A stretch of DNA of 59,662 nt, counting the filler, from Nemertoderma westbladi (taxonomy: Eukaryota; Animalia; Xenacoelomorpha): assembly GCA_032718475.1 (NCBI GenBank). It is 3 parts of 3 records of this genome, joined end to end, with 100 filler letters (N's around TTAATTAATTAA, not from the genome) between each part and the next. Parts side by side here need not be neighbours in the genome. Positions count along the whole stretch, not along the records: positions 25,609 to 51,966 come from JAUCBJ010006509.1; 2 more parts are not named here. One strand, given 5' to 3'. A program made the translations under genes and the position numbers. The notes beneath the pieces were generated by a model that did no database searches, was not told the origin of the DNA, and saw only the letters and a program-made list of their open reading frames with translations. Of the stretch, positions 5,201 to 58,086 are shown piece after piece. Positions within the stretch are counted from its first letter, which is position 1; each line of letters starts with the position of its first letter.

Positions 5201-8200
5201 GCTTTAATATCCTTCCCTGCAAATGTCACCAAAAACAATTATCCAACTGGATTGATCGAATTAGATCAAAACCAAGACTCTTCTGGTAACATTGCTGTCA
5301 ATTTTATAGAAGTGAGTAATGTATTGCTTGTTCCATTTGCACAGGATTCCTCATCCAATAACAGCAGCATCAACGACTACTAAAGATACAACAACAGAAG
5401 CACCAGTAACAACAACAGCAACCACAGCCATACCTACAACAACACCAACCACACCCATACCTACAACAACACCAACCACACCCATACCTACAACACCAAC
5501 CATACCCATACCTACAACAACACCAACCATACCCATACCTACAACAACACCAACCACACCCATTCCTACAACAATGACCACTCCACCCATACCCATAACA
5601 ACGTCTCTCATTCAACCACCCATGACTACAACAAATACAGCCGAAGAGAGCCTCAAACCATTTGATGGGTGAGTTGAGTTAATGATTTCATAAATGTTAA
5701 TTTAAACTAAATAAAAATTTAATTTAGGTCAGGTCAGGTCAGGGTCCTCATATCTTGCTACCACAATTAATATGGTACTACCTAATGCTGTAACCCCAGT
5801 AGGACAGTCTGAAGACACATAGCTTATTCCAAACACTATAAAACCAGAAAACCCTACATTCAGAAATTTAAAGAAATACAATTGGTTTATACCACACCAA
5901 TATGCCATGAAAGTCTAATAGCATTTCTAAATCCCAAAGTAAAAAGGCTTTGAAACGACATCAAAGCGTCAAAACAGAACCAAACCACGATAAATGACAC
6001 TCTTCCCACTGTCAAGAACATGTGTGATCATGCGGATTATCTTGACAACAACCTCGAAGTTAGAAAAACAAAGGAATGGGTAGCTCTATTAAAATTATAC
6101 CATTTGGAAATCAGGCCTCTCCCATCAACTGGAGAACACATTCTCTCGAACCAAGTGGAAAATGTACTTTTTTTAGAGGTGAGACATGGTCTCACGAATC
6201 CCTTGAACAATGAATTGATTGTTGTCACACAAGACTTCTAAACATTAGATTGAGACCACATCGCCAGCTATGACATATATAGCTCTAGAGTAACTTAAAA
6301 GCGATACTGGACTTCGAAGAAACGAAATTGCAACACCCAACTTAGTACAGCATGTATGATAAGTTTTGAAAGACTTAATAAATGAAACCAGATTTGTAGG
6401 CTTGTTCTAATCTCAGTAATGACATTTGAAAAACATTTTGCTTATTGTTTTACAGAACACGAACAGATAACTTTGTGGATACTATACTTCAAACCAATTA
6501 CAGTGGAATAGAACCCCCACAGCAGGTGGCCAATTGTAAGTTGTTAATAAAATCTAAGGTGGCTAATTGTAAGTTGTTAATAAAGTTAATAGTTTAAAAT
6601 TTAAAGTAATAAAAAATATGTAAATATACTAGTCCAACTTGAAAGGGATACTGGACTTGGGAGACAATTATGAGGAATCGGGAAGCCTGAATTAGGATTG
6701 ACCCCATTTCCACTGTCTGAGCTCGAATAGTATCAGTTTGGAACATTGGTACCCCCGCTGCTTTGCAGGTAACAGCCAAGAGAGATGAGCCTTTTAAAAC
6801 TTTCGTTTGTCAATCCATAAAGTGGACTTTTCGGTTTTCCCATGCAGCTACCATTAGGCCCATCTCTATAGGTTATGTGCCACGCCATTTCATTTGTACC
6901 TAATGCTTGACGAAGGTTCCAGTGAGGTCAGTCAACGATAACAAAGGCCTATGCCTATAAAGGAAGGTTAGCTCAGTTGTTAGAGCGCCGGGCCTGCATA
7001 TTGGTTGTAGATTGGAGCCCCACAAGGATCCACTGAGCCCTTCATCCCATGGGGTCGATAAAATGAGGTCCAGTTGAATGACTGGGAGCAAAACAAGTGA
7101 TATGTGTATTGCCCACCACTACCTTTGGGTACCAGAAATCGAATAGAAGCCTTGCTTTACGCCTATATTTGATCATGATCATCCATACATTTGTCTTTAT
7201 TTGTCTTTTTTCATCCTTATGTGTGTTTCATATGCGGCCAAGTATTGTATTCAATTACATAGATTAAAGTCTTTCATGTAATCTGTATTGTGTTTAGTGG
7301 ATGTGATGGTGGAAGTCAATGTTAGAGATATGATTCTTGAGAAAGATGGCAGAGATACTGATTATGTTTTCACATTCTTGATAACTACAAGATGGAATGA
7401 TCCCAGATACACAAACGTAAGTTGCTATAACGTATTTAATCGGCATAACATAGATAAATAGATATAACATAGATAAATAGATATAACATAGATAAATAGA
7501 TATAACATAGATAAATAGATATAACATAGATAAATAGATATAACATAGATAAATAGATATAACATAGATAAATAGATATAACATAGATAAATAGATATAA
7601 CATAGATAAATAGATATAACATAGATAAATAGATATAACATAGATAAATAGATATAACATAGATAAATAGATATAACATAGATAAATAGATATAACATAG
7701 ATAAATAGATATAACATAGATAAATAGATATAACATAGATAAATAGATATAACATAGATAAATAGATATAACATAGATAAATAGATATAACATAGATAAA
7801 TAGATATAACATAGATAAATAGATATAACATAGATAAATAGATATAACATAGATAAATAGATATAACATAGATAAATAGATATAACATAGATAAATAGAT
7901 ATAACATAGATAAATAGATATAACATAGATAAATAGATATAACATAGATAAATAGATATAACATAGATAAATAGATATAACATAGATAAATAGATATAAC
8001 ATAGATAAATAGATATAACATAGATAAATAGATATAACATAGATAAATAGATATAACATAGATAAATAGATATAACATAGATAAATAGATATAACATAGA
8101 TAAATAGATATAACATAGATAAATAGATATAACATAGATAAATAGATATAACATAGATAAATAGATATAACATAGATAAATAGATATAACATAGATAAAT

Positions 8201-11200
8201 AGATATAACATAGATAAATAGATATAACATAGATAAATAGATATAACATAGATAAATAGATATAACATAGATAAATAGATATAACATAGATAAATAGATA
8301 GATACCTGGCTCAAATTAATTTCTATGAAATTCGATAATGCATATAATAAGCTTGCGCTTGCTCTGATGGTATATTTTTTATTAATTGAATCGGCTCTCT
8401 GGTTGTGAATACCCAGACTATTGACCCTTGGACAACTACCCCCTGACAATTGCTACCCGGACTATAATTTCCCCTTGGGCATTGCCCCCCTGGACAATTA
8501 CACCATGGAAAATTACACTCCAGACAATTGCACCCCCGGACGATGGCCTCCCAAGGACTATTACCCCCACGAAGAAGTCCATTTCAAATGGAAAGGGCAA
8601 ATAGTATGTCAATTGCGTATTCCACATGGGAGAATTGCTTCTGAATTTATGTATGAAGAATATCGCTAGATATATGTATAACAAATCACAAAATAATGCT
8701 ATTCGTTCTAGGATACATCATTAAATGACTACCTTGACTCGACTATTTTCTTGTTCTTGGATATGATGTTGAACATTTGGACATTTTTTTAAAAAAATTT
8801 ATTTAAATAAAGTCATTCAATGAAGAATCACATTGACTGCCTATTTAATGTCCGGGCCGTACGATTGTATTTTATTATTTCTTCAGATTCCACACTTTAA
8901 CACATCGATTACACTAAAAGAAAGTGACGGGTTGAGCGATTTGTGGATTGTCGTCATGGAAACCTGGGGGGCGTTGCGAAAACAGAATGACCGAGATGTA
9001 ATGAGGGCTATAATATGGGCCAATGGTAATGTGAGAACCATACGGAGGTTAGGAAGAGTTAGGGTTGAAAATTTTAACAAATCGAAAAAATTACAACTAG
9101 ATTACTTTATTTCAACTTCAACTTATTTTATTATATTGAAAAGGAATAGACAAAGAAACATACAGTAATTAATGTATGCCTTAATATGTTTTAATCTTTT
9201 AATTAATTTCTACCTTGCTTGGAAACCTATTTTTGCAATTATATTATTCAGCACATTACAAAAACAACTATTACTGCAATCATATTCTTACTGCCAAATA
9301 AAGTAAATATCTAAAGTTAATAAATTTTCTCTCCTATTTAAGACAAACAAGACGGGTTAAATGCGATCCAGAAATGTTTCTATTCCCCTTCGACTTCATG
9401 AGGTGTCGGATTCTATTGAGGGCTGAATATGCTAATGATCGTAAGTGGTGACATACTGAAAATTTACATTTTGTAAAATGAACAGTTACGAATGTTGTAA
9501 TATATGTTTAGTCAGGTGAGGACTTTCGAATATGTAAGGGAAAAGCATGGGACGCATTGAATGGGCTTTCCAGAATTTGGAAGTCACACAGAATTCATCG
9601 GAAACTAAAGGTACGATTATTTAGAGTAGCAGTAGTTCCAGTACTCCTCTATGGGAGTCCATGCTGGATTCTAACTGCTGAGGACACCAAATCTCTGGAT
9701 GGCAAATTCACAAGCTACAAGCACAAACATTCATGCTACGCCGGGTTCACTGTGTTAAGTACAATGCACGCATCTCCAACAAGACACCATATAACATTGG
9801 AGGTGTCACTACTACTACTAGGATCGGCATGCTGCATTGCAGCTGCATTTTTAAGAATGATGTGCCGGCTTGTCAACAAAATTGCACCGCCACAACTCCC
9901 TATCACCCATGACATTTGCTAGATCATCCGCATCTTCAAGGCCAGTGTCCTTTAAGATGCGTCTCAAGAAAGTCATGGGCTGTCCACCATGCTTATTCAC
10001 TCCATGAGGCTGCCAAAGTACAAGATTATGCACTGGCTGATCCTCACGGCGAAAGCAATGTCCTGCAAAGCGGAGGCGATTTTGTTCTAGTGTCAAGCTT
10101 GGGGGAACAAATGAGACACCTCCAATGTTATATAGTGTCTGGTTGGAGATGTGTGCATTGTACTTGACACAATGAATCCGGCGTAGCATTCTTGTGAATG
10201 TGCCATCCAGAGATTTGGTGTCCTCAGCAGTTAGAGCCCAGCATGGACTCCCATAGAGGAGTACTGGAACTACTGCTGCTCTAAATAATCGGACCTTAAG
10301 TTTCCGATTAATTCTCGGTGACTTCCAAATCCTGGAAAGCCTATTCAAGGCTGCCCATGCCTTTCCCTTGCGTATTCGAAGGTCTTTCTTTTAAGCTGAC
10401 TTACGGATCCATGACCCCAGGTAACAGAAGACGTCCACATGCTCAAGCATACCATCCTTTGAGCTTATGCTCATCCGATCAGAGACTTGCTGAGGACTTT
10501 CAAAGTTAACTGTCAAAATTTTGGTCTTTCTGGAGTTAATAAAAAGACCAACACTAGAAGCAGCAGGTTCTAATGAGCTGAGGAGCCGTTGGGCTCCCTC
10601 TAATGATTCTGAGAGTACTCCTAAGTCATCAGCAAAGTCTAGATCAGTTAGGTACTTGGCAGGATTTCCTCGACTTCTGGAGCCAGTAGGTGGAGTAATC
10701 ATCACCCCATCATCATTATGATGATCTAAGGACATGCCCAACCACAAGAATGAACAAGAATGGTGCAAGTGTGTCTCCTTGGAGGACGCCCCATAACACT
10801 TCAAATGGTTCTGTGTCACCGTAAACAGTAGACACAAATGTTGTCGAACCATCGTATACTGATCTAATTGCTGCAATAATTTCATCAGGAATCCCATATA
10901 ATGAAAGTATGCTGAACATACGTGAGCGAGAGACTGAATCAAAGGCCTTGAAGTCAACAAAGATAACAGCCAGATGCCTGTCTTTCTTTTTTGATAATTC
11001 TTCAATTATCCTTCTAAGTGCCAAAATGGGCTCCATGGTCCCACGACCTTTACGGAACCCATTCTGATTTCCACGGAGCAGTCTCTCAATCGGATCCCTG
11101 ATGCGATTTAATAGAATCCTATTGTATAGCTTTGCAGCAATCGAGATCAATGAGATTCCCCGAAAAGAACCATAGAGTGTTAGGTTGCCCTTCTTGGGAA

Positions 11201-26179: not shown

Positions 26180-28551
26180 ATGGCCAGAGTGCCTTTAATG
26201 CATTATTCAAGAATCGATGGTAATTGTGAAAATCAAAATCCCATGATGGTAAGTAATGCCTACTAAGGATTAATAAAAGCTGACAAAAAAACTCATTAAA
26301 AAACATCTGAAGCTTAAATTTAAATGAGTCTCCAGCGCAAATTGGTCACATGAAATAATATTTTGTTTATTGTTTTGGTTAGAATACCAATACACCGGCA
26401 CTGTAACCTGCTCCTTCCCTCTAATGTTTTTTATTCGCGGAAACCTTTGAAAATTATTTAATAATTTAATTATTAACTAATATTTAATTCATTAATAATA
26501 AATTAATGGACTAAATAGATACCTATTGTTTTACGTTGGTGGAGTCCATTTGTATTAGATAATTGATGAAGTCCATTTGTAATTATTTAATAACTAATAA
26601 TTAAATAATATTACTTGCATTTAAACGTAATATCATATCCCGTGTTGTTAGCCGTTGCGGGAGACAGAACCTCATAGAGGCCGCCTGAGAGGGCGAAGTC
26701 CATGTTACCCAGAGTGGAGGCCGTCAGTGAGGGCGTGGTCCATGGTACCCAGGATGGAGGACGCATTAGAGGGTGGATGGGGTCCATGGTACCCAGGATG
26801 GAGGCCGTCAAAGAGGGAAGGGTCCATGGTATCCAGGATGGAGGCCGTCTGAGAGGGCGGGGCCCATGGAACCCAGGATAGAGGCCGTCAGGGAGGGCGG
26901 GGACCTTGGTACCCAGGGTGGAGGCCGTCAGAGAGGGAGGGGTTCATGGTACCCAGGGTGGAGGCCGTCAGAGAGGTAGGGGTCCATGGTACCCAGGGTG
27001 GAGGCCGTCAGAGAGGGAGGGGTCCATGGTACCCAGGGTGGAGGCCGTCAGAGAGGGAGGGGTTCATGGTACCCAGGGTGGAGGCCGTCAGAGAGGGAGG
27101 GGTCCATGGTACCCAGGATGGAGGCCGTCGGAGAGGGCGGGGTCCATGGTACCCAGGGTGGAGGCCGTCAGAGAGGGAGGGGTCCATGGTACCCAGGGTG
27201 GAGGCCGTCGAAGAGGGAGGGGTCCATGGTACCCAAGGTGGAGGCCGTCAGAGAGGGAGGGGTCCATGGTACCCAGGGTGGAGGCCGTCAGAGAGGGAGG
27301 GGTCCATGGTACCCAGGATGGAGGACGCATTAGAGGGAGGGGTCCATGGTACCCAGGGTGGAGGCCGTCAGAGAGGGAGGGGTCCATGGTACCCAGGGTG
27401 GAGGCCGTCAGAGAGGGAGGGGTCCATGGTACCCAAGGTGGAGGCCGTCAGAGAGGGAGGGGTCCATGGTACCCAGGATGGAGGACGCATTAGAGGGAGG
27501 GGTCTATGGTACCCAGGGTGGAGGCCGTCAGAGAGGGAGGGGTCCATGGTACCCAGGGTGGAGGCCGTCAGAGAGGGTGGGGTCCATGGTACCCAGGGTG
27601 GAGGCCGTCTGAGAGGGAGGGGTCCATGGTACCAAGGATGGAGGCCGTCAGAGAGGGAGGGGTCCATGGTACCCAGGGTGGAGGCCGTCAGAGAGGGAGG
27701 GGTTCATGGTACCCAGGATGGGGGCCGTGTTGCCGATCAGAATAGCATTTAATGGTCTCAATGTATGAAATTAAATTAAGTTTTAAAGCAACTAGCCACT
27801 AAACACATAAATTATTGTTGTTTGCGGTCATTTTGCGCCATTATCTCAATTTTTTGCACATTCTTTCCAGTCTATTTTTTGCATCATTTTCATTTTTCGG
27901 TCGAAATTTTATTGGTATTTCATCGTCTAAGCATACAAATCACAATTGGTGTGATGTGTGAAATGCTATCCCGATCCGCAACCTGGGAGACGGCACCAAA
28001 GAGCAGTTTACTCTGCTAAGGGGTACCGGCATTTTATATATGAACAATTTGTATTTTTTTTAAAGTATCCTTATTCAGTGTTCTATAGCGCTCCTTTCTA
28101 TCTTTTAACCTGTACAGTTACAAATTAATTTATTGTTTTGGTTAGATTCAGCCTTCTGTAACCTGGGTTTTTAGTGAAACCCTGGTTTTCTTCACATGGA
28201 GGTAAACTGCAAAGTAAAATCAAAGTCTGTTATACTTAACATATTTAACGTAAATTAACAAATAACGTTATATTATTTATTTAGTATACTAAGGGAAAAT
28301 AGTATACAGATACTAAAACCATTTGAGAGATATTTTGCGGTTTTGTGAAACTTCATCCAATAATTTACATTCCACAGACGTTTCTTCCATTGTGCAGTGG
28401 CTTGCCCAACCACCTCAAGGTTCCCACATCAGCAGATACTCCTGAATTGACCCCCGTGCCCTTACTAAGTGACCAATCATGTTTGGAGCACTTACGCCGC
28501 CAAGACTATATAGTAGAGAGACAAAGGAATACAACTCCAACCAATTTTGAG
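26180..28551 (+). CDS. CCNE: Probable upstream coding exons of cyclin E (26180-26248 MARVPLM...ENQNPMM; 28378-28551 TFLPLC...RRQDYIVE...NFE)
   Basis: Strong splice sites (ATG|GTAAGT, CCACAG|, GAG|GTGAGT); phase 0-0, in frame with the cyclin E exon at 36276; RRQDYIVE resembles the KKHQYEI N-terminal motif of cyclin E2 (recalled). Could instead belong to another gene. Confidence 0.55.
26677..27728. repeat. GC-rich 40-bp minisatellite (GGTCCATGGTACCCAGGGTGGAGGCCGTCAGAGAGGGAGG), ~26 copies
   Basis: Direct inspection; recurring variant units containing GGACGCATTA. Confidence 0.96.
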
Positions 28552-34944: not shown

Positions 34945-37319
34945 ATGAGTGTTATTTTGGGAGTCAATGCACTGTTGTCACAAACACCTCCTTCGGAAGA
35001 GCCAGTTGGTCCTTCCCCCATGGTAGGTTTTCAGCTATTTTTTCAACATTACTGAAATACTGACAGTTTTTTTGTTTTACTAACTACTTGTGTGTACAGT
35101 GACACTTTACAGTATGCTCATAACCCGGGTGATTTGTTGCATTAACGAAAGTAGTGACGGAACGGCTACTGAAAAAATGTGTTGAACTTTTGTCGTTAAA
35201 AAAGGTGTAATATTTTTAAGGGATTATATTTATTTATTTATCAAGCACGTTAAGTGAAAACCTTACCGGTAGGTGTGTTAGTACCAAAGTATGTAAAAGA
35301 ATAAAAAACAACTAGACCTCTAGATGTTGCATGCACTCAGTGATCAGCTGACAGCAGCCAGCCGATCGATAGGTTTCGTCCCGCAGTTGAAGGCATTCTC
35401 AGGGGGCCAAGCCAGGAAATGTAGAGAAATATTACGGATAAATATAATCCGTAATTATTGTGATTACTCAAGCTTCTACTTCAATTGTAATATTTTGATA
35501 TAATTTCTCAAATTTTGTTATAGGAATCGAAGAGCATTAAAGTAACTTTAAAATTAAACTGAACCTGAAAATTGAAATTGCTTTACTGTTGCTGCGACAG
35601 CATCGGCAGACAAACCTTGTTTGTTCTTCTTTATATTTTAAGATTTAATAGGGTCGAAATAAAGATAATAATTTAGTAATATTATACTACTATATATATA
35701 CTAATATTTAATAACAGTTTCACTTTTAGTTCAAATTTTCGTTTTTGGTATTTTTCGTTAATTTTTATTATTTATACATTGAAACACTAACTAGTAGCTC
35801 CATCTGTACAGGCAAGTGCAAAAACGCCAAAATATCTATAAATTTTGACTGCGTGTGTGAATTTTTCTTAATATTAGTAGTTCCACAATTTTTTTACTCT
35901 AATGCCCACCCCGCCCATTATACATTACATTCTAATTATAAAATCCTAAATATTCCTCCAAAATTGTTGCACTTTTAAGCAGCAAATATCTTCGAATCAG
36001 AAATATCTTCATTATATTATATTATATCTTCATAGTATTATAAATTTGAAATAAACTGCATCCATACTTACTTTCTTTTGATCTTCGTATTTCCATTTTC
36101 ACTGACTCACTACGATCGTTCTTACAACAAACTTCACTGAGATCAGCACACTAATGTGCTACAATGTGTAATGTTAATATTTATACACGAGTAATACTAC
36201 TTTACTGTATGTAATTAGTCAGATTTTATTTAAATAATTTTAACTCGTTTTACGATCCGATTATTTTTTTTTTAGATAAACCCTAACTTTCGGCCATTTC
36301 GGCTCCAGTTTCCCAGTCCAACGGATCTGCTAGCCAAGGCTCAAACCTCGACCTGCAGACTCCCACCCATACCGCCGCTGAACTGGACAGACCGATCGCA
36401 ACTGTGGAACGCCATGAGGTGAGTTTCTTTGTGGAGTTATGGGTGTGAAGGTAACTCCAACCATATTGAACTAACCGCTATCTGGTATTGTTCTCGCTCA
36501 GCTCCTCTCTTGTTTGAGACAAAGTCCATCTGTGATGTTCCCTTGCGTGCTTACAGCCTTTATAATAACTGACAACGCTTGCCAAGGGCTTTGCCCTTTA
36601 TCAAAGCCGGCTCACTGCTATATATCGCATTATTGCTGAATGTATGTCCTCTGTAGTAGTGGCGTTATTAATTCGTGGAATGTGGTGGAACCTAAGAAAT
36701 ATTAGTCGCATACCTGGCTGGCGCAAAACCAATAAAGCTCATATTTTTTCTCTAACGGCCATTAATATTGGGCCACTGATAAAAACCGGTCAAACCAAAC
36801 CTCATACCTATAACCGTTTGATGTGGGCTACAAATCAATTTATACGGATAAATTCCGCAGTTGAATAAATCATGTAACTATATCGAATGCTCATCTCGGC
36901 TATTTGGCATACAAATTCAGATGTTTTTTACAGATTTCTATCGATGCAGACATAAAACTATAGGGTCGGTAACTGGTGCAAAGACACAATAGTTGCAGCG
37001 TTTTTTTTAACCGATTGTAGCTAAAGATTGAAATCTAAAATAAAAATTCTGCATAGCCCAGTAAAGAATCGGTAAAGAGTAAAGAGTCGGAATCTAAAAT
37101 TATATCTGTTTCAAACTTGATCTGATCTCGTTAAGATTCGTAGAAAAATATTGTAACCTTTCGATGTATAAGAAAAGGATAAATTGGGTGCGAGAGTCGA
37201 AGTGGATATTGGATATGATGGGATGGGATATTGGTTGGTTTCTTGTTAGGTTAGGGTATGTTGGTCGGGTACTACAAACAATAATTATAACAATATAACC
37301 CTATCCTAATAAGAACCTG

Positions 37320-37351
<32 letters not shown>

Positions 37352-40300
37352 CCTTCTCTTCCATTGCTGTTACCGTTAATTATTTTTATCTCACATAATT
37401 TTTAGACTAAAGGAACGAACATACGGACGTCACCATTGCTACCTGTCCCGGCACCCGAACCTACAGGCCCGTATGAGGTCCATTCTGCTAGACTGGATGC
37501 AGGAAGTCTGCGAAGTCTACCGTTTACATCGGGAGACCTTCTACCTGTCCCAGGACTACATAGATCGCTACTTAGCTTTGACGTCAGATTGCCCCAAACA
37601 ACATCTGCAGTTAGTCGGTAAGTTGATCCTTTAATAACATTAAAAAAAAGTTATCAACGTGTAAAAGTACCGGAAATAAGAACTTTCTGTCGCTAATTTA
37701 AATCGACCGAAATTCGACTGTTTTTTTTTCAGTTTTATTGAAACAAGTTTATTCTACATATTGCGTGATTCCATTGAGTGGTCCGAAGCCCCATGGCATG
37801 TCCGGGTTGCGAATCGAATTTGGGCACTAAATTATTTGCTATTTCCACTAAATAAAATGTTTTTTTTTACTAAATTGTCACTAAAATGTATTTTTTATAA
37901 TCACTGAAATATGTAACATATTGTATTACTTTCTATTGAATTTCGTTTATTGCTTTGGTTAGGATAAAGTGGCGCTGCAGCGTGCTCATTTCCAATATTG
38001 GTGGTAATCAAGTTATTTTAATGATAACTAATACTATTTTAGTGGAAACTGAATAATTGAATGATTTCCCTGTTAAATTTTGGTGAAAAGGTCGATAATG
38101 TCTGCGGATGGATGCCTTTTAATATTATTAATATTACTACCTTTTCAGGTATAACCGCCTTGTTCATAGCCGCCAAACTGGAGGAAATCTACCCACCTAA
38201 ACTCTCCGAGTTTGCTTACGTCACAGATGGAGCATGCACCGATGCTGATATACTGAGAACGGAACTCGAAATGCTAAAGGTCTGTCCAATAGGAAAAAAT
38301 GATGTAACAATAATTACTAATTATTTAATAATAAAATATGATACATTAATGGTTTAACTCTCATATTATATCATCCTGGGTTTGTTCTTCACTCCTGTCA
38401 TTAACTAGATCATCTGCGGAGTTCTCAGTGTCTTTTGATTCAGTAACGGGGTTGTCTAGATCCGTTTCCGTTTCTTCTGGTTGCGGTTCTGGTTCCGGTG
38501 GGGCTGTATCCGGGAACCGTATCTCCCCATCCCTCGTTCGGATTCGCGAACTCGCATCCAACTCCCTCGCAATATCGGCGAGTCGCTGGTACGTAGCGAC
38601 ACGGCACGGCGGCCCGGACCGGAGGTACTCGGCGCCCAAACCGACCGCAAGATCGGCGACGAACCCGTCGTCGACGCCGCCCACCGGGCTCCCGACGACG
38701 AACGCGAGACCCTGGCGACGCGCGTTTGTCGCCGCCAACCTGACATCGGAGACTGTTGTCCGTCGATCCGGGACCACGATGTACCCGCTGCAGCGCACGG
38801 ACGGGGGTTCGACCCCCCAGCGCTCCGGCGACCCAACCGCAGACTCAGCGAGGATCAGACAACGATCCGAGAGTTTCTCGCACAGAGAAATCCAATTGTC
38901 CGCCTCCTCCTTCCGCAACGGGTCGACGAGCGCCACGATAAACGGGTAGCGATTTAAAAGATCCGCGTAAACTTCGATCAGCTCTTCGGCTGACTTAACA
39001 ATCCCGTTTATCATCTCGTACTTTCCTTTATCCGCCACGTAAATCTCGTGAGCCGCGCAGTTTATCGCCACGTTCACATCGGTTCCCACCGTCAACTCGA
39101 GACCCGTACAGACGTCTTTAACCAACTCGAGTAGAACTTCCGGTCGGTCCGCCGGCGGTACCCAACACGCCGACTCAGTGACTCGCGTCGCGACCCCGAA
39201 CTTTCCCGTTACCATGGCTCCCAACGCCCGATAGACCTTAGCTACCAAAGCGACCGTCTCAGGAGTCGGTAGATCCGTCCGTGGGACTATCATGAGCTCC
39301 TTTACGAGGTTCTGTTTCCCCGCCGCAGATTTCCCGCCGAAAAACACTGTTGTCATGGGAACCGGCATTGCGATGGGCACGGAATCAGAGTTTTCTTGAC
39401 CCGCGATGTTGGCGACTATTTGATGAGCGGGTTGGCCGGTAGAGGCGCTGCGAACTTTAACGAGCGCGGCGGACAACCCCGATATGATAGCGTTGCCCGG
39501 CAACTCGTACGGCTGAGGTTCCGCGTTCTGCTGGACGACGGTTTCCTTCTCTTTACCGACTTTCTTTCCGGATTTCGGGGACCGGGTCCGCTTGTTCGTC
39601 GCGACTACGGCCGGAGTCGGCGACGTCGGTTCGCTCGACTTGGTCTCCTCCGCGAGTCGACGTTCCTCGTCGACCTCGAGGTTCCGAACGACGTCGACGA
39701 CGAGTCGGTCGCACTCCTCGAGTTGGTCGACGCGTCGTCCCGCAACCACCGCCCCCACCGTCGTCTCCAGCAAGGCGATCCCGCCCCCGCAATGAGCGGT
39801 TCTCTCGGCGTCCGACTTGGCCCGCTGTTCCACCGAACCGTTCGCCTCCCCCTTCGGTCTGTCTGCCACGACGTGACTCGCTAACATCTTCTCTTTGCCG
39901 TGTCGCAAACCGTAGACCTCCACTCGCGTTGTGGACTCCCCCCGCTGGTCTATCGTCGGTTCCCCGGCAACCCGGGTAATTGTTATAGGTAACGCCGAAG
40001 CCTCGAAGTAATCGGACAGATATCCATAGACATCTAAAGGGGACTCAATGAACAAATTGTTAAGAACCTTCTCCATCTTCAGCGGTACCCCGTTGTCTTG
40101 GTAATAGATGATTGCTCTTTGTTTCAGTTCGGCTAGCTCTTGGGGACTCAGTTTTGTTTTAGTGCCCATGATGTTGATTTTAATAACAATCTCTTAGTTA
40201 TTATTAACTCACAAAAACACTTAAATCGCGTAAATTTATAACAAATTTATCAGTATTGTATAATAATAATTATTTCCTTGAATATTTTTATAGCATTCTG

Positions 40301-43300
40301 AAATTACATTTTAATTAAACTAAACATGAATAATATATTGTCTATTAAAACGTGTGGCGCAAGCCAAATCATTCCAGGAACATTGTTATCTATAATACTC
40401 TAGTATTGTAATGTTTATTTATCGCACTCCATGTATTTGTATTTTGTTTCCAGGACGACCGCCCTTGTTTGATTGATAATAATGTTGGCATTATTTAATT
40501 GTTATTAATTTTTATTGTAGTGTCGTAGCATCTTATTTGGGAGCTTCTTTTAAAAACATATTAAAAGAAAACACTGAAAACAATTTACTGCAAATGTAAA
40601 TTTGTAAACCCATTTAGAACTCTTTACTTTTCCCGAAATAAATGATAGATTTTTTAGATTGACTGATTCTTATTTATTTAATTATCTTTGATTTTCAGGC
40701 GTTGAACTGGGACTTGCAACCAATGACGGTGAACAGTTGGATCCAGGTCTACCTTCAGTTAGCCCAGTACCTGTACTCCTTACCAGATGAGCCGACACTG
40801 CCAGGTAGACGAGTCTGTCCCAGCCAGCAGTTCCTCATCACCAAGTTCGCACCCGACGCTTTCGTTAGATGCGCTCTGTTAGTGGACCTCGCTATGCTCG
40901 ACATTGCCGCCCTGCAGTTCCCCTACAGTGTCCTCGCCGCCGCCGTCATCTACCATCTGTCCAATCAGGAGATCGCGTTGGGTGTTTCAGGTAAGTTCCA
41001 TAAACAAATAATATTAGATTTTTTTATTTATGTTAGTTTTATACTTACTTTTATTTTATTTTTATTTTACCTTTATAATTCTATAAGCTTTAACATTTCA
41101 ATTAATTATTACGTTTTGTCTCCATATTTTGGTACTAATTAATTTATAAATACTTTTTGTATTTTAGGCCTTTCGTGGGAGTCTATCAGCCCCTGTGTGC
41201 AGTGGTTGTCTGCCTGCAAAACCACTCTACATGAATCATCAGTTCCGGCCGAACTAAAGTGTTTCAGCAAGGTATCCCCTGAGGATTACCACAACATACA
41301 AACTCATGCCGTTGATCTTACTCTATTGGTAGGTTGTTATCCGTTAGTCTTACTCTATTGGTAGGTTGTTATCCGTTGGTCTTACTCTATTGGTAGGTTG
41401 TTATCCGTTAGTCTTACTCTATTGGTAGGTAGTTATCCGTTGGTCTTACTCTATTGGTAGGTTGTTATCCGTTGGTCTTACTCTATTGGTAGGTTGTTAT
41501 CCGTTAGTCTTACTCTATTGGTAGGTTGGTAGGCTTTTGGTCTTACTCTAGTGGTAGGCTTTGGTCTCACTCTATTGGTAGGTTGTTATCCGTTGGTCTT
41601 ACTCTATTGGTAGGTTGTTATCCGTTGGTCTTACTCTATTGGTAGGTTGGTAGGCTTTTGGTCTTACTCTATTGGTAGGTTGTTATCCGTTGGTCTTACT
41701 CTATTGGTAGGTTGTTATCCGTTGATCTTACTCTATTGGTAGGTTGGTAGGCTTTGGTCTCACTCTATTGGTAGGTTGTTATCCGTTGATCTTACTCTAT
41801 TGGTAGGTTGTTATCCGTTGGTCTTACTCTATTGGTAGGTTGGTAGGCTTTTGGTCTTACTCTAGTGGTAGGTTGGTAGGCTTTGGTCTCACTCTATTGG
41901 TAGGTTGTTATCCGTTGGTCTTACTCTATTGGTAGGTTGGTAGGCTTTGGTCTTACTCTATTGGTAGGTTGTTATCCGTTGATCTTACTCTATTGGTAGG
42001 TTGTTATCCGTTGGTCTTACTCTATTGGTAGGTTGGTAGGCTTTGGTCTTACTCTATTGGTAGGTTGTTATCCGTTGGTCTTACTCTATTGGTAGGTTGG
42101 TAGGCTTTTGGTCTTACTCTATTGGTAGGTTGTTATCCGTTGATCTTACTCTATTGGTAGGTTGTTATCCGTTGGTCTTACTCTATTGGTAGGTTGGTAG
42201 GCTTTGGTCTTACTCTATTGGTAGGTTGTTATCCGTTGGTCTTACTCTATTGGTAGGTTGGTAGGCTTTTGGTCTTACTCTAGTGGTAGGTTGGTAGGCT
42301 TTGGTCTCACTCTATTGGTAGGTTGTTATCCGTTGGTCTTACTCTATTGGTAGGTTGTTATCCGTTGGTCTTACTCTATTGGTAGGTTGGTAGGCTTTGG
42401 TCTTACTCTATTGGTAGGTTGTTATCCGTTGGTCTTACTCTATTGGTAGGTTGTTATCCGTTGGTCTTACTCTATTGGTAGGTTGTTATCCGTTGGTCTT
42501 ACTCTATTGGTAGGTTGTTATCCGTTGGTCTTACTCTATTGGTAGGTTGTTATCCGTTGATCTTACTCTATTGGTAGGTTGTTATCCGTTGGTCTTACTC
42601 TATTGGTAGGTTGTTATCCGTTGATCTTACTCTATTGGTAGGTTGGTAGGCTTTGGTCTTACTCTATTGGTAGGTTGTTATCCGTTGGTCTTACTCTATT
42701 GGTAGGTTGTTATCCGTTGATCTTACTCTATTGGTAGGTTGGTAGGCTTTGGTCTTACTCTATTGGTAGGTTGTTATCCGTTGGTCTTACTCTATTGGTA
42801 GGTTGGTAGGCTTTGGTCTTACTCTATTGGTAGGTTGTTATCCGTTGGTCTTACTCTATTGGTAGGTTGTTATCCGTTGGTCTTACTCTATTGGTAGGTT
42901 GTTATCCGTTGGTCTTACTCTATTGGTAGGTTGTTATCCGTTGATCTTACTCTATTGGTAGGTTGGTAGGCTTTGGTCTTACTCTATTGGTAGGTTGTTA
43001 TCCGTTGGTCTTACTCTATTGGTAGGTTGTTATCCGTTAATCTTACTCTATTGGTAGGTTGTTATCCGTTGGTCTTACTCTATTGGTAGGTTGGTAGGCT
43101 TTGGTCTTACTCTATTGGTAGGTTGTTATCCGTTGATCTTACTCTATTGGTAGGTTGTTATCCGTTGGTCTTACTCTATTGGTAGGTTGGTAGGCTTTGG
43201 TCTTACTCTATTGGTAGGTTGGTAGGCTTTGGTCTCACTCTATTGGTAGGTTGTTATCCGTTGATCTTACTCTATTGGTAGGTTGTTATCCGTTGGTCTT

Positions 43301-44580
43301 ACTCTATTGGTAGGTTGTTATCCGTTGGTCTTACTCTATTGGTAGGTTGGTAGGCTTTGGTCTTACTCTATTGGTAGGTTGTTATCCGTTGGTCTTACTC
43401 TATTGGTAGGTTGTTATCCGTTGGTCTTACTCTATTGGTTTGGTTGGTAGGCTTTTGGTCTTACTCTATTGGTAGGTTGGTAGGCTTTGGTCTCACTCTA
43501 TTGGTAGGTTGTTATCCGTTGATCTTACTCTATTGGTAGGTTGTTATCCGTTGGTCTTACTCTATTGGTAGGTTGTTATCCGTTGGTCTTACTCTATTGG
43601 TAGGTTGGTAGGCTTTGGTCTTACTCTATTGGTAGGTTGTTATCCGTTGGTCTTACTCTATTGGTAGGTTGTTATCCGTTGATCTTACTCTATTGGTAGG
43701 TTGGTAGGCTTTTGGTCTTACTCTAGTGGTAGGTTGGTAGGCTTTGGTCTCACTCTATTGGTAGGTTGTTATCCGTTGATCTTACTCTATTGGTAGGTTG
43801 TTATCCGTTGGTCTTACTCTATTGGTTTGGTTGGTAGGCTTTTGGTCTTACTCTAGTGGTAGGTTGGTAGGCTTTGGTCTCACTCTATTGGTAGGTTGTT
43901 ATCCGTTGATCTTACTCTATTGGTAGGTTGTTATCCGTTGGTCTTACTCTATTGGTAGGTTGTTATCCGTTGATCTTACTCTATTGGTAGGTTGTTATCC
44001 GTTGGTCTTACTCTATTGGTAGGTTGTTATCCGTTGGTCTTACTCTATTGGTAGGTTGTTATCCGTTGGTCTTACTCTATTGGTAGGTTGTTATCCGTTG
44101 GTCTTACTCTATTGGTAGGTTGTTATCCGTTGGTCTTACTCTATTGGTAGGTTGGTAGGCTTTGGTCTTACTCTATTGGTAGGTTGTTATCCGTTGGTCT
44201 TACTCTATTGGTAGGTTGTTATCCGTTGGTCTTACTCTATTGGTAGGTTGGTAGGCTTTGGTCTTACTCTATTGGTAGGTTGTTATCCGTTGGTCTTACT
44301 CTATTGGTAGGTTGGTAGGCTTTGGTCTTACTCTATTGGTAGGTTGGTAGGCTTTGGTCTTACTCTATTGGTAGGTTGCTTCTGTTATTGGTGGATTGGT
44401 TAACTATTAAGTTTATTATTATTATAGGAGCGGTCGATGGATCTTCGACGACTTATGGAACTCCAGCTGACTCCATCCTCAAGGGGAAGCCCTATGTTCA
44501 GTATGCTGACGCCCCCTAGTAGCAGTCACAAACATCCTTACCAACACATGGAGAGTAGCGTTCCCATGTCTCCGTGGTGA
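34945..44580 (+). CDS. CCNE: G1/S-specific cyclin E. Exons (34945-35022), 36276-36418, 37406-37617, 38149-38279, 40699-40990, 41168-41328, 44428-44580. 389 aa from ATG 34945, or 444 aa using the upstream exons instead.
   Basis: Cyclin box [53 protein letters not shown] and C-terminal phosphodegron MLTPPSS; all GT-AG, phases consistent. The first exon is less certain than the rest. Confidence 0.95.
38361..40169 (-). CDS. ENO4: Enolase 4 (ENO4-like), intronless, 602 aa, nested antisense in cyclin E intron 38280-40698
   Basis: N-terminus [37 protein letters not shown] matches the ENO4-specific N-terminal region (recalled); enolase-fold remnants ([28 protein letters not shown]); ATTAAA about 32 nt after the stop. 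Confidence 0.9.
   Translation of the reverse strand: MGTKTKLSPQELAELKQRAIIYYQDNGVPLKMEKVLNNLFIESPLDVYGYLSDYFEASALPITITRVAGEPTIDQRGESTTRVEVYGLRHGKEKMLASHVVADRPKGEANGSVEQRAKSDAERTAHCGGGIALLETTVGAVVAGRRVDQLEECDRLVVDVVRNLEVDEERRLAEETKSSEPTSPTPAVVATNKRTRSPKSGKKVGKEKETVVQQNAEPQPYELPGNAIISGLSAALVKVRSASTGQPAHQIVANIAGQENSDSVPIAMPVPMTTVFFGGKSAAGKQNLVKELMIVPRTDLPTPETVALVAKVYRALGAMVTGKFGVATRVTESACWVPPADRPEVLLELVKDVCTGLELTVGTDVNVAINCAAHEIYVADKGKYEMINGIVKSAEELIEVYADLLNRYPFIVALVDPLRKEEADNWISLCEKLSDRCLILAESAVGSPERWGVEPPSVRCSGYIVVPDRRTTVSDVRLAATNARRQGLAFVVGSPVGGVDDGFVADLAVGLGAEYLRSGPPCRVATYQRLADIARELDASSRIRTRDGEIRFPDTAPPEPEPQPEETETDLDNPVTESKDTENSADDLVNDRSEEQTQDDII
40446..40459. promoter_or_regulatory. RFX X-box-like motif ~280 bp upstream of the ENO4 ATG
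   Basis: GTTTCCAGGACGAC (reverse complement GTCGTCCTGGAAAC) fits RYYNYY-WW-RRNRAC with one mismatch. Confidence 0.45.
41309..44378 (+). repeat. ~96-copy 32/33-bp tandem array built from the cyclin E exon end plus 5' splice site
   Basis: Unit CCGTTG(G/A)TCTTACTCTATTG|GTAGGTTGTTAT, with variant ...GTAGGTTGGTAGGCTTT(T); the first unit overlaps coding sequence AVDLTLL. Confidence 0.97.
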
Positions 44581-46027
44581 TATCAACGTATCCCATGGAT
44601 ACAACTATAAACAGACTGGGAACATATGGCAACTAAACTTTCGGTGTGTCAAGTAAAGTTGAAAGCCCAATTAGCTATGGTGCTATTGTAGCTACATGTA
44701 GTAGCGTTAGGTAATATTTAATGGCGTTTGTTTTTAGAATGTGTTCTTTTACGCTAGTTGATATAATTATAATAAGAGGTGATGATCGTATGTATCTTAA
44801 GCTAATACCATTCGATGCGGTTGTCGGTTTTTAGAAACAGTTGATGCCATGTTAATTCTGTATGGTTGGCTTCGATTTTTTTTATGCGTATTTGAGGAAT
44901 GATAGTAATGTTACCCTACGATATAAGAACATTTAAAGCTCTAGCACTCTGCTGTTACGAATTAGTAACTATGTGGACTTAAATTGTTCCAGTTGACAAC
45001 CGCATTAGTTTAGGTATTTGTTTATACCTCAGATATTCCGCAGATCCCAATACCAACGCGCAGTCGGTCGTTGCAATAGGAATGGCGCATACAATATATA
45101 TTTAGCTTAAAGCACTCACTCAACTTTCTCGAACTGAATCATGGAAGACTATAATACGGAATCACCTTGCATTGTAACCTTTAAGACTACCAATAGTTTT
45201 TGAGGAAAAAGAAAAATTATTGGATGAGTACAATAAAACAATTTTAATTTAGAAACAAATTATAATTTGCCAAAATCAAATTTGGGTAGTTAATTTCGAA
45301 GCGCTGATACAAAATATTGAAATCGTTTTTTATCGTTATTGACTTATTACTATCGTATTATTGTTGACGTATTGACTTATTTCTTAACTTTTTAACCAAT
45401 TCTATTTCCTTCAATCAGTGATTGAATAGGATTGATTCAGAGTCAATAACCGGTGCTTATAGCTAAGTTTATATGCCGCCCTTCATACAGACTACGTATC
45501 AAAACGTCAAGCTATTATTTGCTGAAATCGTGCAATCTCATCACTTCTCACTCACGTCATTGATAATTTATTCTGTCTTTATGGAGTTTTTATTCCAAAT
45601 ATTTGATTCACTTTCACCTCTTATTTTTCACGCGCTTGGTATTATAAATTCATTGGCTGTGAATCAGTTGTAGCATTTCATAATTTTTCCATAGCGCGCG
45701 TGTTTGACGTACGCGAATGCCGCAGTGTATTTAATAAATATTTTATTTCGCTTCTTAAACCTTTGACGTAAATCTTGTTAACTTATTTAAGTAAACTTAT
45801 TTTATAGGTAATATTTTACTTCCACTATGCTGCTTTTCATCTTTTAATTTGTTCCATTGATATGGTGATTTATTGTTTTAATGTTATTCGCTTTATTTAA
45901 TTTTAATTATCAACGCTTTTTAGGTCTTTTTAAGAGAACCCGCCCTACCCGTATTATTTAACTCACGTTTAGTAGTTAGTAAATAAGTGTGTTTTACATT
46001 AAGTTACACATGATGGTATTTTGTTGC

Positions 46028-46419
46028 CTGTATTTTAACTTTTACGTCGCCATCTTGTGGGTGTGTCACTCCCCTCTGTATTTTAACTTTTACGTCGCCA
46101 TCTTGTGGGTGTGTCACTCCCCTCTGTATTTTAACTTTTACGTCGCCATCTTGTGGGTGTGTCACTCCCCTCTGTATTTTAACTTTTACGTCGCCATCTT
46201 GTGGGTGTGTCACTCCCCTCTGTATTTTAACTTTTACGTCGCCATCTTGTGGGTGTGTCACTCCCCTCTGTATTTTAACTTTTACGTCGCCATCTTGTGG
46301 GTGTGTCACTCCCCTCTGTATTTTAACTTTTACGTCGCCATCTTGTGGGTGTGTCACTCCCCTCTGTATTTTAACTTTTACGTCGCCATCTTGTGGGTGT
46401 GTCACTCCCCTCTGTATTT
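46028..46419. repeat. Perfect 48-bp tandem repeat, 8 copies
   Basis: CTGTATTTTAACTTTTACGTCGCCATCTTGTGGGTGTGTCACTCCCCT repeated. Confidence 0.96.
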
Positions 46420-49547: not shown

Positions 49548-51570
<2,023 letters not shown>

Positions 51571-55949: not shown

Positions 55950-56690
55950 ATTTGACTGACTTGGTACTTCCGATTTACAATTACGTAATCGGTCAATGTT
56001 TACAAATAAAATCTTATCATGTGGCTTGTCAACCAATCTTATTTCCGCATTATTGCGACAATTTTTAGAATTCTAAAAATGGCCTAGTGAGTTTATGATA
56101 CTTTCCTTTCACCAAATCAGGTCGGTGAAGGAACACCCTATCTCCGACTCGATATGTGACTGATTTACGTTTTTTATCAAACTATTCCTTATATTGCACC
56201 TGCGCCTTATTCTATGTTGTGTCGTGCAATATCCCACGCCGTAGATAGATGATCTGACAACTCAGTTCTATAATCATCCAAATCCACTTGATTTGATAGA
56301 CTGTCCGAGGTCTATTCAAAGCCGTTTCGGTTGGCAATCGGGCATCCCGCCCATATAACAAAAAAAACGGCGATTCATTTGTACTTGAGGGTTGTGATGT
56401 TCTATAAGCAAACAATACACAATGCAACACCCGATCCCAATTGTTATTGTGTCTGTCAGCTGTTTTAGCTAACATGTCTAACAACGTTCTGTTAAAACGT
56501 TCTATCATTCCATCCGTTTGAGGGTGAAATGCACTGGTATTAATTTTCCGAATCCCGCACAAATCGCACACAGATAAAAATAAATCAGACAAAAAGTTAG
56601 TACCTCTGTCTGATAACAGCTCCCGAGGTACTCCATGCCTGCCAATAAAATCTATGAAACAATTTGCTACTGTCTCCGCTTTATACCAAA
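55950..56690 (-). mobile_element. Gypsy-type integrase remnant
   Basis: HGVPRELLSDRGTNF, TSAFHPQTDGMIERFNRTL, LFAYRT, SPFFLLYGRD; frameshifted 3' part; 5' part replaced by a minisatellite. Confidence 0.88.
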
Positions 56691-58086
56691 TGTTGTTATT
56701 GTTGTGTGGGTTCATAACTTTATTAAATACCATATGTTTTTATTGTTGTTTGGGTTCATAACTTTATTAAATACCAAATGTTGTTATTGTTGTGTGGGTT
56801 CATAACTTTATTAAATACCAAATGTTTTTATTGTTGTGTGGGTTCATAACTTTATTAAATAACAAATGTTTTTATTGTTGTTTGGGTTCATAACTTTATT
56901 AAATACCAAATGTTTTTATTGTTGTGTGGGTTCATAACTTTATTAAATAACAAATGTTTTTATTGTTGTTTGGGTTCATAACTTTATTAAATACCAAATG
57001 TTTTTATTGTTGTGTGGGTTCATAACTTTATTAAATACCAAATGTTTTTATTGTTGTTTGGGTTCATAACTTTATTAAATACCAAATGTTTTTATTATTG
57101 TGTGGGTTCATAACTTTATTAAATACCAAATGTTTTTATTGTTGTATGGGTTCATAACTTTATTAAATACCAAATGTTTTTATTGTTGTGTGGGTTCATA
57201 ACTTTATTAAATACCAAATGTTGTTATTGTTGTGTGGGTTCATAACTTTATTAAATACCAAATGTTTTTATTGTTGTGTTGGTTCATAACTTTATTAAAT
57301 ACCAAATGTTTTTATTGTTGTGTGGGTTCATAACTTTATTAAACACCATATGTTTTTATTGTTGTTTGGGTTCATAACTTTATTAAATACCAAATGTTTT
57401 TATTGTTGTGTGGGTTCATAACTTTATTAAATACCAAATGTTTTTATTGTTGTGTGGGTTCATAACTTTATTAAACACCATATGTTTTTATTGTTGTGTG
57501 GGTTCATAACTTTATTAAATACCAAATGTTTTTATTGTTGTTTGGGTTCATAACTTTATTAAATACCAAATGTTTTTATTGTTGTGTGGGTTCATAACTT
57601 TATTAAATACCATATGTTTTTATTGTTGTGTAGGTTCATAACTTTATTAAATACCAAATGTTTTTATTGTTGTTTGGGTTCATAACTTTATTAAATACCA
57701 AATGTTTTTATTGTTGTGTGGGTTCATAACTTTATTAAATACCAAATGTTGTTATTGTTGTGTGGGTTCATAACTTTATTAAATACCAAATGTTTTTATT
57801 GTTGTGTGGGTTCATAACTTTATTAAATACCATATGTTTTTATTGTTGTGTAGGTTCATAACTTTATTAAATACCAAATGTTTTTATTGTTGTTTGGGTT
57901 CATAACTTTATTAAATACCAAATGTTTTTATTGTTGTGTGGGTTCATAACTTTATTAAATACCAAATGTTGTTATTGTTGTGTGGGTTCATAACTTTATT
58001 AAATACCAAATGTTTTTATTGTTGTGTGGGTTCATAACTTTATTAAATACCATATGTTTTTATTGTTGTGTGGGTTCATAACTTTA
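56683..58086. repeat. AT-rich 44-bp minisatellite, ~32 copies
   Basis: ATACCAAATGTTTTTATTGTTGTGTGGGTTCATAACTTTATTAA with point variants. Confidence 0.96.

Follow-up and report, generated by a model that had tools for sequence, protein, structure and literature searches.

How does a spliceosome behave when an intron opens with its own donor site repeated close to a hundred times over, and do the additional copies serve any purpose? This is the question posed by the last intron of a cyclin E gene in Nemertoderma westbladi, which lies within the stretch of 59,662 nucleotides analysed here (the ‘window’; three parts of the genome assembly joined end to end). Our answer, to which we assign a probability of roughly 70%, is that the intron houses a minisatellite built from the exon end and its donor, in which the first donor to be met is used and the other copies are tolerated passengers.

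As originally predicted, the gene encodes cyclin E: profile and structure searches place its cyclin box nearer to E than to A, B or D, with Pfam Cyclin_N matches in two exons (Table 1) and, in a search of solved structures, a top match to cyclin E1 for the first of these (E 5e-23, versus 5e-10 for cyclin A2); the exon that follows the pair matches cyclin E1 only. The six modelled exons join into a single open frame of 363 amino acids, the model starting at 36276 with at least one further exon lying 5′ of it. On known structures the array donor, at the end of the penultimate exon, aligns with residue 370 of the 410-residue cyclin E1 chain 9nyq_B, and with residue 268 of the 271 in the crystallised cyclin E1 construct 8h6p_B, three residues from its end. 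A protein search with one of the cyclin exons returned no match, and that for a nested gene matched two distant enolases.

Table 1. Features of the cyclin E gene and its last intron, in window positions; X2 is the run that yielded the spliced contig described in the text.
Feature	Position	Strand	Basis or remark
Cyclin E coding exon, most 5′ in the model	36276..36418	+	AG/GT ends, open joined frame
Cyclin E coding exon, cyclin box	37406..37617	+	Cyclin_N E=1.4e-19; best match cyclin E1
Cyclin E coding exon	38149..38279	+	Cyclin_N E=7.6e-14
Cyclin E coding exon	40699..40990	+	cyclin E1 matches only; X2 contig cover
Penultimate exon, 161 nt	41168..41328	+	joined frame, X2 contig
32-bp minisatellite, 96 registers, first unit across the exon–intron boundary	41309..44378	+	Tandem Repeats Finder, unit parsing, depth check
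Genuine donor TTG/GTAGGT	41329..41334	+	used by the X2 transcript contig
Second donor copy	41361..41366	+	use would frameshift the last exon
In-frame TAG	41362..41364	+	reached from every donor after the second, also upon intron retention
Final donor copy with the rest of the intron (unique sequence), 57 nt in all	44371..44427	+	likely pre-expansion intron, the ancestral state being a reconstruction
Last exon, coding part (50 aa + TGA)	44428..44580	+	joined frame
MLTPPSS, candidate Fbw7 phosphodegron	44503..44523	+	no other T-P-x-x-S motif among the 363 modelled residues

The array is detected at period 32 by Tandem Repeats Finder with scores of 421 and 4498, far beyond chance, and runs head-to-tail, its first unit (41309–41340) covering both the end of the exon and the genuine donor. 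Parsing into registers recovers 96 of these, with donors from 41329 to 44371, inside an intron of 3099 nt (41329–44427; phase 0); the GTAGG donor is kept in 94 and has decayed to GTTTGG in the other two. The proposals that some 96 copies occupy a last intron of about 3 kb, that 57 nt separate the last donor copy from the acceptor, and that the whole represents an expanded exon-end/donor unit are all upheld by this parsing. The description of each unit as the last 20 nt of the exon followed by GTAGGTTGTTAT fits a part of the array: this 12-mer comes after 62 of the 96 donors, the exact exon 20-mer precedes 16 (the genuine donor among them), and 63 of the 95 complete units (43 + 15 + 3 + 1 + 1) show at most two mismatches to the exon’s last 20 nt, but a second unit type, carrying an extra internal TTG/GTAGGC site, makes up 31 of the 95; one further complete unit is short, at 24 nt. 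Likewise, the figure of ~96 near-identical donors matches the number of registers but neither allows for the two that have decayed nor equals the count of GTAGG donor-like sites, of which the intron holds 125, 31 of them inside the second unit type. The units fall mainly into three types (43, 16 and 15 of the 95 complete units), which are interspersed with little higher-order order, and there is no coding in the array, each of the six frames having 47–92 stops. The window as a whole is repeat-prone, eight larger arrays spanning 7243 bases (12%).

Could so regular a structure be a product of assembly, or stand in for far fewer copies in the real genome? Four of the eight listed runs (X1–X4) were compared with both flanks of the array. 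Divided by the number of copies assembled, k-mer depth in X1 comes to 16.1, 16.6, 16.2, 16.3, 15.0 and 15.8 for six of the nine distinct array contigs, and 216/13 = 16.6 for a seventh—the short contigs being assigned by their length, place and mismatch count, so that their identity is probable—with the unique flanks at 17 (3′) and 7.5 (5′). Given a per-copy depth of 15.0–16.6 against these flanks, the copies present in the X1 reads are no fewer than those assembled, and occur in the same proportions. Saying this, no contig listed crosses the array, which short-word assemblies cannot do, and X1 is perhaps the source sample and hence not independent. An independent sample from a separate study, S3 (runs X3 and X4), with seven mismatches to the window over the 479 nt upstream of the array, also carries it, its units standing at many times the flank depth and including, among the contigs listed, two variants that the window lacks. 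We consider both an artefact and a far shorter true array extremely improbable.

The array is found in both of the DNA samples examined, a result that neutrality allows and does not predict. The two variants private to S3, together with the two decayed donors among the 96, indicate that it turns over. Over the contigs listed, and bearing in mind that summed depth is not copy number, the ratio of array to flank depth at the 3′ end is 28 in X3 and 22 in X4 versus 80 in X1, and at the 5′ end 92 in S3 versus 176 in X1; a relative array depth of a third to a half of that in X1 gives a weak hint that S3 may carry a shorter allele.

Which of the donors is taken is seen in X2, a run labelled ‘DNA?’ which, in showing a spliced cyclin E contig, behaves as RNA. 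The single such contig (1383 nt, depth 986) omits the intron at 40991–41167, which has GT..AG ends, and runs straight from 41328 into 44428 (its positions 1114 and 1115); that is, it uses donor 1 and keeps the degron. Compared with the 3′ flank of the array, it again shows the genuine exon letters ahead of the junction. Its loose end before 40697 corresponds to the end of the exon at 38149–38279, and in the other direction its cover runs beyond the stop codon of the last exon, through 3′ untranslated sequence, as far as 45500 (the end of the compared stretch). X2 cover is absent at 41330–41345 and 44339–44416, in both end units, which carries no evidential weight. The most upstream donor is used in the mRNA, as observed in one contig from one run; minor use of donors 2 and 3 is possible, contigs being prone to drop minor forms and the 32-nt insertion made by donor 2 being of a kind that could vanish as an assembly bubble. 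The animals behind X2 (sample S2) may also carry a shorter array, or none.

What sets the first donor apart? Strength does not favour it, the first two donors and the last copy sharing the same 11-nt window that pairs with U1; nor does folding, which we reject as the cause of the choice, donor 1 ranking 93 of 96 in predicted accessibility. What distinguishes donor 1 is therefore its position. A fold calculation that permits G-quadruplexes formed none in the one 101-nt stretch considered, although 29 two-tier GG motifs occur, and recursive splicing via internal AG/GT sites was set aside on account of poor pyrimidine tracts. The original prediction held that the locus shows how the spliceosome picks one donor of ~96; the structure is real, but the question has already been studied on the F7 minisatellite where, in the available part of that report (PMC1557585), splicing uses the furthest upstream of a set of identical donors, downstream copies work once the first is lost, and folding is given as no explanation. 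By the same logic the choice here would be made by order, through exon definition or through 5′-to-3′ scanning of the nascent RNA. The intron also holds 125 UAGG motifs, and silencers located between competing splice sites are described as repressing the intron-proximal one (PMC2095810, in part), such that the silencer-like motif in each copy may perhaps assist the choice of donor 1.

The donor taken decides the C-terminus of the protein. Translation agrees with the original prediction throughout: only donor 1 keeps the frame, giving an intact C-terminus with MLTPPSS; donor 2 puts the last exon out of frame, giving a 24-residue tail that ends at TGA 44468; and later donors stop at the TAG listed in Table 1, as is the case for the remaining 125 of the 127 candidate donors. 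Stops more than 50–55 nt before a junction trigger nonsense-mediated decay, a rule that may not hold in this animal. The stop reached from donor 2 falls in the last exon, that from donor 3 lies 28 nt before the junction, and from donor 4 onward the distance is 60 nt or more; transcripts from donors 2 and 3 are thus predicted to escape decay and those from later donors are not, with the consequence that steady-state RNA cannot separate accurate choice from mis-splicing followed by decay. That the lost tail carries an Fbw7 motif is borne out at the motif level: MLTPPSS fits the pattern of a central T, an S/T at +4 and hydrophobic residues at −1 and −2 set out in the accessible part of PMC8797792, marking it as a candidate phosphodegron of the cyclin E T380 type. 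As no solved structure of cyclin E is matched by the last exon, this assignment rests on the motif. The idea that the array is ‘positioned to delete’ the degron survives insofar as the tail is indeed lost, but with the tail sitting in the last exon it is lost automatically whenever the frame is broken at the last intron.

Might the extra copies nonetheless carry a hidden cost? Donor choice could be leaky, with transcripts from late copies decayed and longer arrays lowering cyclin E output. The one stop shared by 125 of the 127 candidate donors, and its distance from the junction from donor 4 on, would hide such RNA from any steady-state sample; the final copy matches the first in strength and, so near to the acceptor, suits pairing across the intron; and early experiments with duplicated donors gave opposite results, according to the portion of PMC1557585 available. 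The same source describes in-frame, decay-escaping downstream copies in the F7 minigene that were still unused, which counts against this idea, as does the assembly of the correct mRNA at high depth in X2, though depth poorly measures expression; on balance we think such a cost unlikely. We give little credence to a regulatory switch, whereby donors 2 or 3 would produce a decay-resistant mRNA for a degron-less cyclin E that retains its CDK-binding core, as tuned by copy number or by cell state. The predicted escape of both transcripts from decay speaks for it, as does the chance that the truncated product could fold, being cut just short of the end of 8h6p_B, and as does the use of second and third donors in CBS and IFI6 (PMC1557585, in part). 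The transcript contig uses donor 1, however, copies 4–96 would contribute nothing, the degron is lost by default whenever the frame breaks here, and the residues added are merely the repeat read in another frame. It seems equally doubtful that array length sets the split in each individual, with donors 2–3 giving stabilised, degron-less cyclin E and the output of donors 4–96 destroyed; the original suggestion that the array fixes how cyclin E is divided between normal, stabilised and decayed forms finds no support in the sole transcript contig, which uses donor 1.

Sequestration of U1, also proposed at the outset, fares no better. Here the 125 donor-like sites would take up U1 snRNP in amounts large enough to change splicing or early polyadenylation, and each can indeed pair with the U1 5′ end (predicted at −8.8 kcal/mol for the main type and −7.7 for the internal type), but these are weaker sites than three of the gene’s four other donors (−9.3 to −12.1 kcal/mol). 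With few nascent RNAs made from one locus and U1 snRNP very abundant, we find a sponge of this kind scarcely credible. A local effect of U1, in which the array shields its own intron from early cleavage, is possible, if hypothetical.

The best reading of the array is as a still-evolving, tolerated minisatellite, whose copies beyond the first probably have no regulatory job. It may have begun with a short tandem duplication spanning the boundary of a 57-nt intron, and would since have grown and turned over, in a genome prone to repeats, through slippage or unequal exchange. The TTAT at the unit junction has two possible sources, the exon TCATG just upstream or the intron GTTAT just downstream; a variant in S3, TCATCCG beside the terminal copy, leans towards the exon. 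Some leak to later donors is plausible by analogy with CBS and IFI6, where second and third donors are used, and rare slips of this kind would be cleared by nonsense-mediated decay. Taken as such, the locus is a large instance of a known oddity, consistent with a first-donor priority that extends over ~125 competitors and 3 kb and that seems to hold although the last copy is only 57 nt from the acceptor. Its layout, together with a likely variation in length between animals, offers a convenient experiment of nature, in an animal outside the mammals, on whether donors are chosen by order or by proximity. Were donors 2–3 measurably used, giving a cyclin E devoid of its C-terminal degron, the locus would matter more.

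The cyclin E array belongs to a known kind, the donor-spanning minisatellite of the F7/CBS type, or ‘mirage’; our literature search, with subscription journals mostly outside its scope, found no publication describing an array of this sort for cyclin E. The closest published build is the human CBS intron 13 repeat, a 31-bp VNTR, c.1444_1467+7(16_21), of ~24 exon and 7 intron nt (PMC2630376, as far as the available text goes), for which two further donors are recorded as used besides the genuine one (PMC1557585, likewise). As here, the donor is reiterated and units vary by single bases, with 20–24 exon and 8 intron nt in cyclin E; the CBS array differs in its 16–21 copies as opposed to 96, and the cyclin E array in its place in the last intron, where use of any later donor costs the protein its C-terminal tail. 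The CBS repeat number is reportedly linked with enzyme activity.

The 37-bp VNTR of F7 intron 7 (Borensztajn et al. 2006; PMC1557585, in part) likewise has its first unit over the exon–intron boundary with identical donors after it, of which only the most upstream is used, irrespective of folding; it is an internal intron, with 5–9 copies and 4 exon nt per unit. Donor choice in F7 was tested in minigenes, whereas the cyclin E case is known from sequence and one transcript contig. From the same available text, donors are reiterated 10–25 times in IFI6 (6-16) intron 2, LMNB2 and PDGF intron 4—fewer copies than here, again with the genuine donor dominant or exclusive: LMNB2 and PDGF are listed as using the genuine donor only, IFI6 the second and third as well. 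In an invertebrate, the lancelet, the ‘mirages’ of the Adh3 and globin genes are tandem copies of exon–intron boundaries that are described as leaving splicing undisturbed and as differing in length between haplotypes; they have units of 10–160 bp, with 3–6 copies in the globin example, and include acceptor-side arrays (PMC3087553, in the part available). Set beside these published cases, the cyclin E array stands apart in its copy number, in the shortness of the intron that remains, and in the candidate degron carried by the tail that is lost.

Within the last cyclin E intron (41329–44427), which is largely filled by a 32-bp minisatellite repeating its own splice donor, the letters CUUAC occur 87 times, placed in each unit a few bases upstream of the donor and identical to those of the U1 core; a GG-N2-GG-N2-GG-N2-GG motif, formed by the second unit type (array units with an extra internal TTG/GTAGGC site), is found 29 times in the same intron. 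In the predicted folding of the array, no donor is singled out by either motif.

Downstream, at 45331–45336, additional sequence is present in both X2 (a run labelled DNA but spliced like RNA) and X3 (a DNA run from another study), with loose ends of 48 to at least 255 letters; the 3′ untranslated region thus bears an insertion there that is missing from the window's haplotype. One X2 contig (depth 154) omits 261 nt of the same region (44782–45044), the skip having TG..AG ends, four letters between and a short side of 26 nt; it is a deletion allele or artefact rather than a normal intron.

We also observed a second cyclin E-like transcript in X2, a 1699-nt contig of depth 63 that differs from the cyclin E exon at 4 of 43 nt (40700–40742), and whose loose ends, read by eye, give a protein near-identical to cyclin E with many silent changes. 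The contig represents either a cyclin E paralogue or another organism in the run; if a paralogue, its gene could buffer the window's cyclin E gene.

Besides the cyclin E array, the window contains four other long, homogeneous minisatellites (8–45 copies), listed here with three further coding frames; the alpha-tubulin label is our presumption, from the resemblance of that frame's reading.

Other coding frames and minisatellites in the window
Feature	Position	Strand	Match
TraB-domain frame, intronless, 379 aa	30928–32064	minus	TraB, E=1.6e-22
Enolase-like frame, intronless, 601 aa	38364–40166	minus	Enolase_C, E=3.7e-27
382-aa frame	49548–50696	minus	reads like alpha-tubulin
Minisatellite, 19-bp unit	7445–8300		
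Minisatellite, 40-bp unit	26677–27728		
Minisatellite, 48-bp unit	46028–46419		
Minisatellite, 44-bp unit	56683–58086		

The TraB-domain frame is arranged head-to-head with cyclin E, and the enolase-like frame is nested, antisense, in a 2419-nt cyclin E intron; because both are intronless and so near each other, they may be retrocopies. A protein search matched the enolase-like frame to distant enolases only (27% identity); its N-terminus is reminiscent of enolase 4.
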